64,000 nucleotides of DNA from Deltaproteobacteria bacterium (GCA_021824125.1 JAKALO010000001.1:9722-73721); one strand, 5' to 3'. Counted from the first letter of the stretch, positions 4,144-53,102 are shown. A program made the numbers and translations. Notes: a model not told the origin generated them from the letters alone.

Positions 4144-5799
4144 CTACGGAGGGCATGGCTCCGTCGGGGATTTCGCCGCCGTGGACGGTTCCCCCGGCAC
4201 TCCGCCGATCTTGCGGATCGCATCCTCGGCGGCCTTCCGGACCTGGGGGTCCTTGTCGGCCAGGAGGTCACGGAGGGGGCGCATAACGCGGGTGAACCCG
4301 ACCTCCCCCAGCGCGGACGCCGCGCGGGCGCGAACCGCCGGGTTGTCGTCCTGGAGCGAGAGGAGAAGGGGTTCGACGACCACTTCACCCATCTGGGAAA
4401 GGACGAAGCTGGCGACGAAGCCTACCCGCTCGTCGGCCAGTAGGCGGATCAGCGGGTATATGGCCCTCGTGTCCTTGATCTGCCTCATGGTGCACAACGA
4501 GGCGATCCGTGTTCCGATGTCCTCCTCCTTGTTAAGGGTTTCAAGGCACCCCTCGAGCACCCGGTCACCCATCCCCTCGAGCACGTACTGCTTCCAGTAG
4601 TCGAGCTCCGGATCGTTGCTTCTGCGCAGCAGGGGGCGGAGGTTCGCGTCCCCGAACTGCCGGAGCGCCATGATGCATAGCCACCTGATCTCCGGGTCTC
4701 CGAGCCCGTTGACCAGTCCTTCGACCGACGCCGGGTCCGCGATCGCCATAAGGGCGGCGACCGTGGAGACCTTGACATCCGGGGAAGGGTCACGCAGCAC
4801 CTCGAGGAGAATGGGCATCGCCGCGCGGTATTTGCTCTTCCGGATCGACGTCGCGGCGCCGATCTTCTGCAGGACGTTCCCGCCGCGAAGCATCCGGAAG
4901 AGGATCGGGCGGCCCGCGTCGGGCATCCGCGCGAAGGCCTCTGTGGCCGCCTCGCGGACATTCGGATCGTTGTCGTCCAGGTAGGAGGCCACGTCCTCAA
5001 GTATGGACGGGTCCGCCGTCTCCCCCAGGGTAAGGCAGGCGTAATACCGCACCAGCGGTGAAGGGTCGGAAAGGATCTTGCGAAGGTAGAGCAGCGTTTC
5101 CCTGGTGCCCATGGCCCCCAGGGCGCGGATCGCCCCGACCCGTATGTCGACGTTCCCGTAGGAAAGGAGGGAGGTCAGGGCCGCGGTCGCGTCCTCCCCG
5201 AACTTGGGCAGGGACTCGATCGCCGCGTCGCGGACCGACGGGTAGACGCTGTCGACTTTCGCCATGACCAGCCGCAGCCCCCCCTCGCCCCCGAACTGGG
5301 CGACGGTCTGGATCGCCTGGACCTGGACCGACGGGTCCGAATCGTTGAGCGCGGCCTGGATGGATGGGGCAGCGGCCCGGGCGTCGAGCTGCCTCAGGAT
5401 GAAGAGGGCGTTCCGGCGGACGACCGGATTATTATGCTTCAGGGCAAGCACGGTCTTTCGGACGGATTCGTTGCCTATATTGATGAGCGCGCCGCTCGCG
5501 AGCCATCGAACCTCCTCGCTGTCGAGCGCCCCTATCAGCGTGTCCACCGATGCGGGGCCGAGGTCCACGAGGCGTTTCATGGCGTGGCTTCGAACGGCCA
5601 GGTCCCGGTCCTTCAGGAACGGCAGTATCTCCTTCGCCGCCTCCGTGCCCCCCTTGTCGAAGAGCACGTCGATCGCCTGCGTTTTCTCCTTCTGTGCGTC
5701 CTCCATCGGGATTTCCGCGCGCAGAATCGTGGAAGCCGAAAACAGGGACAGAAATAACACAAGCGGGAACGACAGGTGCAATCGGGCGCTTCGGTACAA
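4144..5799 (-). CDS. Secreted HEAT-repeat (PBS lyase HEAT-like) protein
   Basis: 551-aa ORF with an N-terminal signal peptide (LSFPLVLFLSLFSASTILRA). It contains more than ten repeats of the DPxxxVRxxAxxALG type typical of HEAT/PBS-lyase repeats. Confidence 0.7.
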   Translation of the reverse strand: MYRSARLHLSFPLVLFLSLFSASTILRAEIPMEDAQKEKTQAIDVLFDKGGTEAAKEILPFLKDRDLAVRSHAMKRLVDLGPASVDTLIGALDSEEVRWLASGALINIGNESVRKTVLALKHNNPVVRRNALFILRQLDARAAAPSIQAALNDSDPSVQVQAIQTVAQFGGEGGLRLVMAKVDSVYPSVRDAAIESLPKFGEDATAALTSLLSYGNVDIRVGAIRALGAMGTRETLLYLRKILSDPSPLVRYYACLTLGETADPSILEDVASYLDDNDPNVREAATEAFARMPDAGRPILFRMLRGGNVLQKIGAATSIRKSKYRAAMPILLEVLRDPSPDVKVSTVAALMAIADPASVEGLVNGLGDPEIRWLCIMALRQFGDANLRPLLRRSNDPELDYWKQYVLEGMGDRVLEGCLETLNKEEDIGTRIASLCTMRQIKDTRAIYPLIRLLADERVGFVASFVLSQMGEVVVEPLLLSLQDDNPAVRARAASALGEVGFTRVMRPLRDLLADKDPQVRKAAEDAIRKIGGVPGEPSTAAKSPTEPCPP

Positions 5800-8942: not shown

Positions 8943-9156
8943 AGCGGCGCTCGAATGCCGCCGGATTTACCTGCCCGGGGCTCTGAGGAATCCATCGCGG
9001 AAATACGGCGAGCACCGAGAGCGCCGATGCGCCGCGACAGCGAGGCGCGCGACTGAGGCGTACTGCCTGTACGCCGCAAGGAGCGCAACGAAGCTGTAGC
9101 GGATGCAGCGGCGCTCGAATGCCGCCGGATTTACGGGATGGGTTCCTCAGAGCCCC
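8943..9156. repeat. Intergenic structured repeat element: two perfect 28-bp direct repeats (8943-8970, 9107-9134), each followed by one arm of a 14-bp inverted repeat (8977-8990 / 9143-9156)
   Basis: AGCGGCGCTCGAATGCCGCCGGATTTAC occurs twice, 164 bp apart. GGGGCTCTGAGGAA and TTCCTCAGAGCCCC are exact reverse complements. The interior carries further hairpins (GGCGTAC...GTACGCC). A related motif ATGCCCGCCGGATTTAC occurs at 673-689. Confidence 0.6.
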
Positions 9157-9851
9157 AGGTAGGCTTCCTTGACGTGGGGGTCGGCCAGGAGCTCCTTCCC
9201 CGTACCCTGGAGGACGACGCTGCCGTTTTCCAGGACATAGGCGCGGTCGCAGAGCGCAAGCGTCTGCCGAACGTTCTGCTCGACGAGGAGGACGGTCACC
9301 CCCTCCTTGTTGATCCGCTTGACGATGTTGAAGACGTCCTCGACGAGGATAGGGGCCAGCCCGAGGGACGGCTCGTCGAACATGAGCAACCTGGGCAATG
9401 CCATAAGCCCTCGCCCGATCGCGCACATCTGCTGCTCACCGCCGCTCAAAGTCCCCGCCGCCTGCTTCCTCCGTTCCTTCATCCTCGGGAAGAGTTCGTA
9501 GACCCACGCCAGGGTTTCCCTCCGCTTCTTTCTTGCCTCGGGGGCCAGGGACCCCATGACCATGTTCTCCTCGACGGACATCTCGCGGAATAGACGCCTC
9601 GCCTCCGGGACATGGACAACCCCGTGACCGATGATCCGGTCGGCGGGCAACCGGTCCAGCCGGACGCCGTCGAAAACGATCGTTCCGGCCTTCGGCCGCA
9701 GGAGCCCCGAGATGGTCTTCAAGGTGGTCGACTTCCCGGCCCCGTTTGCGCCCACGAGCACCACGATCTCCTTTTCGCGCACCTCGAAGGAGGAGCCCCA
9801 GAGCACCTGGAGGTCGCCGTAGAAGACGTCGATGGCGTCGACCTTAAGCAT
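9147..9851 (-). CDS. livF: Branched-chain amino acid ABC transporter ATP-binding protein
   Basis: 234-aa ABC ATPase (GANGAGKST, LSGGEQQM) and the last gene of the liv operon. Its stop codon lies inside the right inverted-repeat arm of the element above. Confidence 0.9.
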   Translation of the reverse strand: MLKVDAIDVFYGDLQVLWGSSFEVREKEIVVLVGANGAGKSTTLKTISGLLRPKAGTIVFDGVRLDRLPADRIIGHGVVHVPEARRLFREMSVEENMVMGSLAPEARKKRRETLAWVYELFPRMKERRKQAAGTLSGGEQQMCAIGRGLMALPRLLMFDEPSLGLAPILVEDVFNIVKRINKEGVTVLLVEQNVRQTLALCDRAYVLENGSVVLQGTGKELLADPHVKEAYLGL

Positions 9852-50003: not shown

Positions 50004-51184
50004 CCGCCAGCGTGGAAAAGATCCGGGTCTACACCTGGTTTCCTGCCCTGGTCGTCCTTGCGGCCTTGTGTGCCGCGGACTTCCCCGCCCACGCCGCCGA
50101 TAAGCAGCGACCCGGCCGGAGCCGGAAGTCCCGGAAGGCCCCGCCAAGACCCGCGGTCGGGGGGGTGGCGGACTATTTCTTCGAGGACGCACCTCTCCCC
50201 GACTCCGTGACAGGGGTTCCGCCGGTCGAGGCGTCCGTGAGCGACGTGGATCAAGCACGCCCGTCCCCGGGCGGGCCGGTTCCGCCCCCTGCCTGCGACC
50301 GTACGCCGAATCCGTGCGAGCGCCTCTCGTGGGTCGAGCAGGTGATGTCGATCCGCGACCGGAAGGCGATCCCGCACCTCCGGGCGATGGCCGTCGACGA
50401 CGCCCACGAGCGCGTCCGTGAAAGGAGTCTGGGCGCCCTGGTGATCCTCGGGGACACCGGTGCGGCGCCTCTCTTCCTCGGCCGCCTCTCGGGCGACCCT
50501 TCCCCGGCGGTCAGGCGGGCCGCGGCCGAGGGGATCGGCCTGCTGAGGATACCCGTCCCCCCGGACAGCCTGGCGGAGCCGCTGATCAAGGATTCGAATC
50601 CGCTTGTCCGCGCCGAATGCGCCCGCGCGATCGGCCGGTCGGCCTTCGTCCAGGCGGGACCGGCACTCATGGTCGCCATCCTGAAGGACCCCTCCCCGGA
50701 AGTCCGGGCCCTCTCCGCAGAGGCGCTCGCCGGCATGAAGACCCCGTGGGGGACTGAAGCGCTGAAGCAGGCGGCGCGGGACGAGGACCCGATCGTACGC
50801 CTCTACGTCCTCCGGGGGCTCGTGGAATTCTCCCCGACCGCCGCCGGACCGCTGTTCAAGGAAGTGTGGGACACCACGAGCGACCCCGAGCTGCGCATCG
50901 AGGCCTTTCGCGGGCTCCTTCGCTCCGGGGAGGGGAAGAAGTGGAGCGAGTCCGGTCTCTCCGACAGCGATGCGCGGATCCGCTTCCTAGCCCTGCGGGA
51001 GTGGCTTTCAAACCTTAACTTCGATCCCCGGAATCCCTACACCCGCAACAACAACTTCCTCCCGCGGATCGAGCCGTTTCTCGCGGACTCCTCGCGGGGG
51101 ATCCGCGAACTCGCGAAGGGGTATCTCGAGAACCTGGGGTTCACGGTCCGCCAGTCCGGGTTCGTCTACATCCTCCAGAAGTAA
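50000..51184 (+). CDS. Secreted HEAT-repeat protein
   Basis: 394 aa, GTG start overlapping the upstream stop, signal peptide, multiple PBS-lyase HEAT-like repeats. Confidence 0.65.
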   Translation: MTASVEKIRVYTWFPALVVLAALCAADFPAHAADKQRPGRSRKSRKAPPRPAVGGVADYFFEDAPLPDSVTGVPPVEASVSDVDQARPSPGGPVPPPACDRTPNPCERLSWVEQVMSIRDRKAIPHLRAMAVDDAHERVRERSLGALVILGDTGAAPLFLGRLSGDPSPAVRRAAAEGIGLLRIPVPPDSLAEPLIKDSNPLVRAECARAIGRSAFVQAGPALMVAILKDPSPEVRALSAEALAGMKTPWGTEALKQAARDEDPIVRLYVLRGLVEFSPTAAGPLFKEVWDTTSDPELRIEAFRGLLRSGEGKKWSESGLSDSDARIRFLALREWLSNLNFDPRNPYTRNNNFLPRIEPFLADSSRGIRELAKGYLENLGFTVRQSGFVYILQK

Positions 51185-51223
51185 ACAAGTGCCACCCGTT
51201 ATTGGACCGGATATCGGTCCCAA

Positions 51224-51401
51224 GCCCGCATTTCTCACCGGACTCCGTAGCGAGGCGGTGGAGACGGGCGTGGATACAAGGCGCACGAACTTCGGGCGAC
51301 GCAGGCGTAGTTGAAACTACGTCGAGGAGAACGAAGGAGTGCAACGCAGTAGACATGCCCGTATCCGCCGCCGCAGCAGGAGGCTGGTGAGAAATGCGGG
51401 C
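51224..51401. ncRNA. Candidate structured small RNA (6S-like size) or MITE-like element closed by an 18-bp stem
   Basis: GCCCGCATTTCTCACCGG (51224-51241) pairs with CTGGTGAGAAATGCGGGC (51384-51401): 17 Watson-Crick pairs plus one G.U. The enclosed 142 nt contain internal hairpins. Lies between the HEAT-protein stop and comM. Confidence 0.25.
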
Positions 51402-51542
51402 TAGGTATCCGTCCAGGTTTGAGCGGCATACGGGAGCGCCCTGCCGGACCTTATCCGGATGGTCCCGGCGCACGGTACGCTCCTTGCTGCCCTTTCCCCT
51501 GCGACCAGGCCGTTTCCGGCCAATCTTTCGCGGAAGGGCCCC

Positions 51543-53102
51543 ATGCTCGTTCGAATCCTCTCCTCGACCCTGTGGGGGATCGACGCGATCCCCGTCGAGG
51601 TGGAGACCGACATTTCGCAGGGCCTTCCCTCGTACACGATCGTGGGGCTGCCGGGCAGCCCGGTCCGGGAAAGCGCCGACCGGATCCGCGCCGCCATCCG
51701 GAACTCGGGCCTTCCATTCCCGGGACGCAAGGTTACCATCAACCTCGCGCCCGCCGACATCCGCAAGGACAGCGCGCTTCTCGACCTCCCGATAGCCCTG
51801 TCCATCCTGTGCGCCGAGGGGGCCATCCCGGGCGACGCTCTCGCCAAATACCTGGTCGCAGGCGAGCTTTCCCTCGACGGAGCCCTGAAGCCGGTCCGCG
51901 GGGTCCTTTCGCAGGGGATCCTGGCCCGCCGCCTCGGGCTCGCGGGAATCATGGTCCCTTCCGCCAACGGCGCCGAGGCGCTCCTCGTCCCGGAAATCGA
52001 CGTCATCCCCGCCGCGACTTTGAGGGACGCCGTTTCCGCCTTTTCGGGAGACGGGACCCCGCGGGCGCGCGAGGCGCCGGAACCCGTATCCGCAGCGACC
52101 GCGGAAACGGGACTTTCCGACCTTCGCGACGTCGTCGGACAGCCCGTCGCGCGGCGGGCCCTCGAAATCTCGGCCGCCGGGAACCACGCGCTCCTTCTTG
52201 CCGGTCCCCCGGGATGCGGAAAGACGATGCTCGCCGAGAGGATGCCCGGAATCCTGCCGGACTTCGAGGAAGGCGAGGCGCTGGAAACCGCGCGCGTGTA
52301 CAGCGCGTCGGGCGAGCCTCCATGGCCGCACATCCTGTCCCGCCGGCCATTCCGGGCGCCGCACCATTCCATCACCCAGGCCGGCCTGATCGGGGGAGGG
52401 AACCCGCCGCGGCCCGGCGAGATCACCTATGCCCACGGAGGCGTCCTGTTCCTGGACGAGTTCTCCGAGTTCCGTCCCGAGGCGAGGGAGGCGCTCCGCC
52501 AGCCGCTCGAATCAGGCGAGATCCGCATCGCGCGGGCAGGCAACGTGTACTGCTTCCCGTGCCGGTTCCTCCTTGTCGCGGCGACGAACACCTGCCCCTG
52601 CGGCAATTCCGGCCACCCGAAAAAGATCTGCCGCTGCTCCCCGCGGCTGCTTTCCCGTTTCTCCGGGAAATTCTCCGGCCCGCTCCTGGACCGGATCGAC
52701 CTTTCGGTTTCCGTCCTTCCCATGGCGGGCCACGACTGGTGCGGTCCCGGGGAAGGCGAGGCGTCGGCGGCGGTCCGGGCTCGCGTGAAGAAGTGCCGCG
52801 AGGCCCAGGAGAGGCGGTACGCCGGGAAGCCCTGCCGGACGAACGGAACCGCGCGCGCCCCCTTTTCCGGGCTGGTTGCCCTCTTCTCCCCGGATGCCCG
52901 CACTTTCCTCACGCGGGCCGCCGACCGGCTGGGCTTTTCGGGGAGGGCCCTGGGAAAGATATGTCGCGTGGCACGCACGATCGCGGACCTCGCCGGCGAA
53001 CAGACGGTAGCGCTCCCCCACGTCGCGGAAGCCGTCCAGCACCGGCTGCCCGACTTCGCCCTTCATGGCGGCAAGAAAACAGCGGGACAAGGCCGGGGAT
53101 GA
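51543..53102 (+). CDS. comM: YifB/ComM-family Mg-chelatase-like AAA+ ATPase
   Basis: ATG at 51543. Lon-protease-like N domain, Walker A GPPGCGKT and ChlI-like C-terminal domain. Confidence 0.9.
   Translation: MLVRILSSTLWGIDAIPVEVETDISQGLPSYTIVGLPGSPVRESADRIRAAIRNSGLPFPGRKVTINLAPADIRKDSALLDLPIALSILCAEGAIPGDALAKYLVAGELSLDGALKPVRGVLSQGILARRLGLAGIMVPSANGAEALLVPEIDVIPAATLRDAVSAFSGDGTPRAREAPEPVSAATAETGLSDLRDVVGQPVARRALEISAAGNHALLLAGPPGCGKTMLAERMPGILPDFEEGEALETARVYSASGEPPWPHILSRRPFRAPHHSITQAGLIGGGNPPRPGEITYAHGGVLFLDEFSEFRPEAREALRQPLESGEIRIARAGNVYCFPCRFLLVAATNTCPCGNSGHPKKICRCSPRLLSRFSGKFSGPLLDRIDLSVSVLPMAGHDWCGPGEGEASAAVRARVKKCREAQERRYAGKPCRTNGTARAPFSGLVALFSPDARTFLTRAADRLGFSGRALGKICRVARTIADLAGEQTVALPHVAEAVQHRLPDFALHGGKKTAGQGRG

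Follow-up and report, generated by a model that had tools for sequence, protein, structure and literature searches.

The window, a stretch of 64,000 nucleotides from a Deltaproteobacteria bacterium (GCA_021824125.1), contains between a HEAT-protein operon and comM a block of 178 nt that is closed by an inverted repeat. The initial annotation of this DNA left two explanations standing, a structured small RNA of about the size of 6S RNA and a transposable element of the miniature inverted-repeat type (MITE). The question raised by the locus is whether the block is an RNA gene resident at that position or a mobile element that has landed there. The analysis favoured the second explanation: with a probability of roughly 0.9, the 178-nt hairpin is one copy of a non-coding MITE with IS1380-type ends. 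Coordinates of the features discussed are collected in Table 1.

The two arms, GCCCGCATTTCTCACCGG (51224-51241) and CTGGTGAGAAATGCGGGC (51384-51401), were found by direct reading to form 17 Watson-Crick pairs and one G.U, as originally described, the sole imperfection being G51240 opposite T51385, which is a G.U pair in RNA. No further match to the 18-mer arm was found in the 64-kb window with three or fewer mismatches (0.12 expected by chance), and two 18-mer matches occurred in none of 100 shuffles. The inverted repeat reaches from 51220 to 51405, with arms of 27 nt that are 89% complementary. In both the minimum-free-energy and the centroid structures the 178 nt form a single near-continuous imperfect hairpin with small internal loops only, and the GC-rich bubble that had been placed in the enclosed 142 nt does not appear in this fold. 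An inner hairpin had also been reported; it is real, but the quoted form (CGTAGTT-GAA-AACTACG, 51304-51320) was a misreading of the stem-loop given in Table 1. Folding energies are -116.6 kcal/mol (z -13.9) for the + strand and -91.2 kcal/mol (z -8.6) for the - strand, and no shuffle was as low on either strand. The interior of the element has 63% G+C.

Table 1. Features of the hairpin element at the HEAT-comM spacer and of the related element elsewhere in the window
Feature	Position	Strand	Remarks
Left flanking 4-mer CAAG	51221-51224	.	Degenerate target copy; family consensus YTAG
Left terminal inverted repeat CCCGCATTTCTCACC	51225-51239	+	Identical to left end of ~1.7-kb IS1380-type elements L033, L045 and L087
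Interior rod-shaped hairpin module, 146 nt	51240-51385	+	136.6 bits with covariance model R1; covarying stems, conserved internal loops
Apical hairpin GGCGTAGT-TGAA-ACTACGTC	51304-51323	+	8 pairs, one G.U, 4-nt loop
Second apical pair, family-conserved G.U	G51305.T51322	+	Alignment columns 67-85
Right terminal inverted repeat GGTGAGAAATGCGGG	51386-51400	+	Reverse complement of left end; equals right IS1380-type end
Right flanking 4-mer CTAG	51401-51404	.	Target-site duplication
B-type element, same interior module, different ends	8988-9145	+	Flanks CTGAG 8983-8987 and CTCAG 9146-9150

An exact search for the 17-mer AGCCCGCATTTCTCACC, which contains the end of the element, was carried out with one genome per species and gave at least 120 loci. 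The additional copies of the terminal repeat that would speak for a MITE do therefore exist, in other genomes and in many phyla: among the matches listed, the end occurs in Acidobacteriota, Planctomycetota, Alpha-, Gamma- and Deltaproteobacteria, Verrucomicrobiota, Gemmatimonadota, Nitrospirota and others, and 61 short inverted pairs of ends lie 131-431 bp apart (three or fewer mismatches). The genomes come from soil, sediment, groundwater and sponge-associated habitats. These short pairs fall into size classes near 180 and 244 bp, and family members of 177, 180, 181 and 182 nt differ in length by amounts that are not multiples of three. More than one copy is present in several cases: L066 and L118 have two each, Bryobacterales CBDFJA01 (L012, L022, L026) has at least four, and L117 likewise has more than one.

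Five pairs of the same ends lie ~1.6-1.75 kb apart (L033, L045, L052, L005 and L087). The long elements of L033 and L045 each enclose one ORF of 455-475 aa, and these ORFs match PF13701 (E 1e-151 and 1e-162) and the NCBIfam model NF033539 for IS1380 family transposases (414 and 389 bits, cut-off 180), while those of L005, L052 and L087 contain IS1380 homologues as determined by tblastn. The match between the window element and the full-length insertion sequences (IS) is confined to the terminal ~20 bp; the interior is not derived from the IS and is not a deleted IS, and consists of a rod-like hairpin module of ~146 nt. No IS1380-like coding sequence is present inside the 176-bp element, and no IS1380 transposase is encoded within the 64-kb window. 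A blastn search of plasmids with the element gave no match.

Flanking sequences were compared for 77 end pairs and were identical on both sides in 39, as CTAG/CTAG (30), TTAG/TTAG (8) or CTAA/CTAA (1). Where the flanking 4-mer is not a palindrome, it was repeated directly in nine copies and inverted in one, indicating a 4-bp duplication of a YTAG target and not an inverted repeat. A 2-bp TA duplication was ruled out, since in the eight TTAG/TTAG copies the element end would have to have changed to match. The flanks of full-length IS copies are the same as those of the short elements. As the flanking 4-mers represent this duplication and lie outside the inverted repeat, the element proper is 51225-51400, a total of 176 bp. 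In the window copy the duplication is imperfect, CAAG and CTAG matching at three of four positions.

Several arrangements of these ends were observed in other contigs. In L005 (174-2081) a 180-bp MITE abuts a full-length IS1380-type element end to end, with a further partial end at 118, so that the short and long forms are co-resident on one contig. L117 contains two different MITEs head to tail (5101-5423) with one TTAG in common; their ends are CCCGCATTTCTCACC and CAGTCCGTGGTGAAA, and both carry the interior module (76.7 and 34.7 bits with R1, a covariance model of the interior). The ~244-nt class, represented by L036, L065, L068, L071, L080, L082, L090 and L120, has the same ends; its left ~150 nt hold a related hairpin module, and beyond them lies an unpaired tail of ~75 nt that is richer in A+T. 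Three viral contigs from IMG/VR (L130-L132) contain the element end. One of these, the 4.8-kb contig L132, has outward-facing ends at both extremities, which fits either a copy across a circular junction or a repeat-induced assembly artefact.

The same spacer was then compared among relatives. L125 is the nearest, with a HEAT protein that is 83% identical, and its HEAT-comM spacer is 188 nt long against 358 nt in the window. It is collinear with the window spacer after removal of the element, which L125 lacks. The junction reads GGTCC/CAAG-element-CTAG/GTATCCGTCC in the window and GGTCC-CGCG-CTTTCTGTCC in L125. The spacer of L128 (HEAT protein 60% identical) is also without the element, and model R1 finds nothing there. 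In L127 (HEAT protein 79% identical) a copy identical at 94 of 99 aligned bases (95%) is present in the same spacer, in the opposite orientation and ~66 nt further downstream, next to CTTAG, the contig ending inside the copy. The L127 copy is an independent insertion.

A 6-bp stem-loop, GGACCG-GATAT-CGGTCC (51204-51220), had been noted immediately 3' of the HEAT stop codon. It is real and is kept in L125 and L127, only its loop varying, and since these relatives have no element at this site the stem-loop is a feature of the host locus and not of the element. It is possibly a 3'-end stabiliser of the HEAT operon. On the other side of the element, the sequence CGGTACGCTCCTTGCT (51473-51488) precedes the comM/yifB start at 51543 by ~55 nt and is conserved in L125. 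It agrees with the sigma-54 promoter consensus, TGGCACG-N4-TTGCW, in its GG-N10-GC spacing and at most positions. A MITE upstream of this sigma-54-like site would move any upstream activator site 180 bp further away.

These comparisons bear directly on the possibility that the block is an independent structured small RNA gene resident at the locus, 6S (SsrS) or similar. Its length of ~180 nt and its long, irregular, largely double-stranded helix do resemble 6S RNA, and the + strand is favoured over the - strand by 25 kcal/mol. However, when Rfam was searched on both strands, as had been recommended, neither 6S (RF00013) nor any other family matched by gathering score or at E<=10. Rfam 15 gave no match by gathering score in the whole window, and the permissive scan of 51100-51600 (E<=10, both strands) returned only noise and no 6S; permissive scans of both elements and a metagenome copy were likewise noise (Twister-P5 at 16.7 bits, TPP at 15, and a plant miRNA hairpin at 42 of 268 bits). 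The large central bubble of 6S is absent, and a simple scan of 51000-51700 detected no sigma-70-like promoter and no intrinsic terminator. Elsewhere the element is mobile, with many copies per genome that have transposon ends and target duplications. Above all, the orthologous spacers of L125 and L128 are empty and the L127 copy is displaced and inverted; the empty sites refute the small RNA gene, which we regard as highly improbable, and the 6S alternative was accordingly dropped.

Could the inverted repeat instead have arisen by chance, or be a terminator or attenuator native to the HEAT operon? Its start only 36 nt 3' of the HEAT stop codon is where such a signal might stand, but the fold energy reached by no shuffle, the hundreds of copies of the family, the orthologous spacers without the element and the absence of a T-run 3' of the stem together refute this reading, to which we attach next to no weight.

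Several other classes of element were considered and rejected. For a retron msr/msd there is no reverse transcriptase nearby, and the element is multicopy with a target duplication; for an integron attC site the R' and R'' core sites are absent. An IS110 bridge RNA or a TnpB omega-RNA would be expected beside a recombinase or TnpB, neither of which is adjacent, and a pattern of conserved loops with variable stems is the reverse of that of a guide. The family does not conserve the GUC and AGAA motifs of the hairpin ribozyme, and one subfamily is without the GGA motifs of a CsrA sponge. REP/BIME sequences are palindromes of 20-40 nt with a conserved GTAG head that are linked to a RAYT transposase and have no terminal repeats or target duplication, whereas the present element is 176 bp long, has both of these features and has partners of the IS1380 type.

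The MITE reading, by comparison, accounts for the small size and missing transposase gene, the terminal repeats, the duplication at the level of the family, the ends shared with IS1380-type elements, the many copies in other genomes, the empty orthologous sites and the independent insertion in L127. Having no gene of its own, the element would depend for its movement on an IS1380-family transposase, supplied in trans from a gene elsewhere, that recognises its ends. It would have inserted into the HEAT-comM spacer after the split from the nearest sequenced relative, landing just 3' of the host hairpin and upstream of the likely comM promoter. It would have no promoter of its own; should it be transcribed by read-through from the HEAT operon, the + strand would give the 3' untranslated region a hairpin of great stability. 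As has been reported of other hairpin-forming MITEs, this structure could stop 3'-exonucleases or serve as a cleavage site for RNase III.

Assemblies of the same species provided further observations. Over 500 nt, L001-L004 are identical to the window except in one internal loop of the element (window 51248-51256), the two versions being CCGTA-GC-GAGG and CC-TACGCTAAGG; the window version fits the family consensus CGTAGCGAG. L003 and L004, which are Logan contigs from the source species, break within the element at about window position 51272, and the L127 contig does likewise. That three independent assemblies end inside the element is expected of a repeated sequence, and hints that those genomes contain more copies.

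It is the interior of the element that departs from an ordinary MITE. About 27 copies of the 177-200-nt class have an interior that aligns with that of the window copy, in one orientation only. With ends removed, 23 interiors were aligned using MAFFT (alignment A1), and the consensus of their individual minimum-energy folds comprised 57 pairs. Standard pairs filled 78.3% of the cells, compared with 61.5% in column shuffles and 31-41% when the partners were slid. Double changes were present in 47 of the 57 pairs, and the covariation score was unmatched in 500 shuffles. The covariation that had been proposed as a check on a small RNA is thus strong, but it holds across a mobile-element family and not across orthologous small RNA loci. 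Unpaired regions are also conserved, namely CAAGGCG, nAG before and GAG after the apical stem, and GCGCAACGnAG.

The module also differs between its strands. The second apical pair is G.U in 19 of 23 copies, and adjacent pairs covary. All 23 interiors are more stable on the strand oriented as in the window, by a mean of 20 kcal/mol, and with R1 the reverse strand of family members scores ~100 bits lower. Arm mismatches are G.T in 169 cases and A.C in 89. In columns dominated by Watson-Crick pairs, G.U variants number 76 against 41 A.C, although these cell counts overstate the independent events because the copies share descent, and counted by column the two are nearly equal (28 and 23). The strand asymmetry is reproduced with DNA folding parameters (-63.1 vs -47.2), so that a role as RNA and a role as single-stranded DNA look alike by this measure.

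The window of the source genome contains one copy of this YTAG family and one of a sister family, termed B-type, which has the same interior module but CTNAG targets. R1 matched the B-type element at 9003-9130 on the + strand (41.2 bits, E 2e-8). It lies between the genes for a leucyl aminopeptidase and an ABC-ATPase, both on the - strand, and the ABC-ATPase stop codon TGA (- strand, 9147-9149) falls within its right flank. Compared with L025 (1005-1215, - strand; flanks CTTAG/CTTAG), mean column identity is 83%. The interior motif AGGCGCGCGACTGAGNCGTA was found in at least 120 metagenome contigs, whereas a strict 33-base pattern combining end and interior had no metagenome matches; B-type copies are mostly 160 bp long. 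Of the 24 copies that have CTNAG on both sides, 19 show an identical central base in the two flanks and none a complementary one, which identifies the CTNAG flanks as a target duplication. Targets of the form C/TNA/G are known from the IS5/PIF-Harbinger superfamily (PMC4482050). No full-length autonomous partner of the B-type was present among the fetched loci.

The fold of the B-type module has the same architecture as in the YTAG family. In 46 de-replicated copies, the share of cells that pair is 89.6%, compared with 82.3% after shuffling and 26-44% after sliding, with double changes in 33 of 52 pairs and an observed score that no shuffle equalled. Two wobbles are conserved (U.G in 38 and G.U in 37 of the 46 copies), 119 G.U variants stand against 40 A.C, and in 44 copies the module strand has the greater stability.

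Three further observations concern B-type copies. A direct repeat of 28 nt (8943-8970 and 9107-9134) places part of the right arm to the left of the B-type element of the window, and is perhaps a remnant of another copy. The hairpin of that B-type element extends to 8970-9163, since the host flank 8970-8987 mirrors 9146-9163, a stretch that takes in the final codons and the stop of the ABC-ATPase gene; this extension looks like the product of template-switch repair or of a rearrangement. In the metagenome copies L134, L169, L173 and L203 a common insert of ~80-90 nt, CCCCAYTCCCGGACGAAATA...GAGGGGCAC, lies within the conserved loop at GCGC/AACG, and may be a smaller nested mobile or hairpin element.

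Gene orientation around the copies was scored with a home-made GC-frame gene caller, which is crude but reproduced the called genes around 51224-51401, and the results are weak. In 19 of 26 YTAG copies and 40 of 68 CTNAG copies the upstream gene runs in the direction of the module strand, a weak bias, and the orientation of downstream genes is unbiased. Many copies directly adjoin a stop codon because the targets contain TAG or TGA.

Usually the ends of MITEs are conserved while their interior drifts. In this case the interior loops and strand-biased wobbles are conserved and the module is common to a family with other ends, which indicates that simple parasitic transposition is insufficient as an explanation. 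One possibility, compatible with the identity of the element as a MITE and concerned only with the role of its interior, is that the rod is a functional single-stranded motif, as RNA or as one DNA strand, that is carried by the MITE or exapted by the host. It might, for example, stabilise the 3' end of an mRNA, act as a substrate of RNase III, bind a protein or take part in transposition as a strand-specific structure. The covarying stems and conserved unpaired motifs of both families argue for such a function, as do the wobbles conserved among covarying neighbours, the excess of G.U over A.C, the consistently greater stability and higher R1 score of the module strand, and the retention of the module with two sets of ends and targets. 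On the other hand, kinship inflates the cell counts and the excess of G.U nearly vanishes by column, gene orientation bias is weak or absent, no promoter was found in the scan, and DNA parameters give the same asymmetry. We hold this explanation only tentatively, at rather less than even odds.

The palindrome may alternatively be kept by processes at the DNA level only, its interior having no sequence-specific function. Intrastrand template switching at quasi-palindromes could homogenise the arms, or a cruciform could assist transposition by drawing the two ends of a copy together. Both strands do fold far below their shuffles, gene orientation is near random in the larger sample, and the B-type palindrome has been extended into its host flank as template switching would produce. 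Yet template switching should erase mismatches, and the wobbles, non-Watson-Crick positions and asymmetric loops are conserved in two families; a bias of G.U over A.C between strands is also unexpected of a symmetric DNA process. This too is a possible account that falls short of an even chance. A broader proposal, which we consider somewhat doubtful, is that the ~146-nt rod is an undescribed and widespread structured motif, of RNA or one DNA strand, with its loops and wobbles under selection, present in at least two MITE families, and that the fold itself has been propagated across phyla. If this were true, the fold could turn an insertion at a stop codon into one that does the host mRNA no harm or is of use to it, or could act single-stranded in transposition.

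As a MITE, the element can be placed among known systems. Members of the IS1380 family (IS1380, ISEcp1 and ISPme1, for example) are described in ISfinder as having ends that begin with CC and direct repeats of 4-5 bp. The ends of the present element likewise begin with CC and its duplication is 4 bp, and its 15-bp ends are identical to those of the ~1.7-kb NF033539/PF13701 elements, but it is only 176 bp long, has no transposase gene, and is unrelated to them beyond the ends. The piggyBac elements have a 4-bp palindromic target, TTAA, and ends that begin with CCC, which parallels the CTAG target and CCCGC ends found here. The parallel is one of description and not of end homology, as piggyBac is eukaryotic, uses another target sequence and is autonomous with MITEs of its own. 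IS1380 transposases serve as the outgroup in piggyBac phylogenies (PMC10813416).

Hairpin-forming bacterial MITEs such as Correia, ERIC and Chunjie are well known (PMC3184786, PMC10969869). Correia/NEMIS of Neisseria, ERIC of enterobacteria and Chunjie of Geobacter uraniireducens resemble the present element in their small size, intergenic position and lack of coding sequence, in having terminal inverted repeats and a target duplication, and in being able to form very stable RNA hairpins, but they have no sequence relation to this family. Chunjie is given as 178-235 bp and about -98 to -130 kcal/mol (PMC3184786), and as A+T-rich with 21-bp ends and 9-bp direct repeats (PMC3184786, PMC6042816). 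The present family differs from it in its 15-bp CCCGC... ends, 4-bp YTAG duplication, G+C-rich composition and occurrence in many phyla. MITEPsy1 of Pseudomonas syringae, for which transposition in vivo was shown, generates a 4-nt duplication of CTAG or YTAA (PMC3189936) and is a precedent for the duplication seen here, although it is 100 nt long, with ends GGAAGGTCTGAAAAAGCC, an IS5-family partner and restricted hosts. The family itself appears to be undescribed: its end sequence was found in no paper in a literature search, and it has no Rfam family. Keyword searches of two reviews (PMC10969869, PMC3184786) found no mention of a covarying interior with conserved loops that is common to families whose ends differ.

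The feature at 51224-51401 is thus an ordinary kind of object, a MITE, and the reading as a small RNA or 6S is rejected. For annotation of this genome, a false small RNA candidate is removed and an unannotated intergenic block of 180 bp becomes a recent transposon insertion. It belongs to a family of small transposons, distributed over many phyla, whose YTAG or CTNAG targets often coincide with stop codons. The most notable part is the conserved, strand-biased and covarying interior common to two MITE families with different ends. If the interior fold is functional, a structured RNA or single-stranded DNA motif, and not a gene, would be the cargo spread by these mobile elements, and the hundreds of natural variants would offer a ready system for testing the effects of hairpin MITEs on adjacent transcripts.
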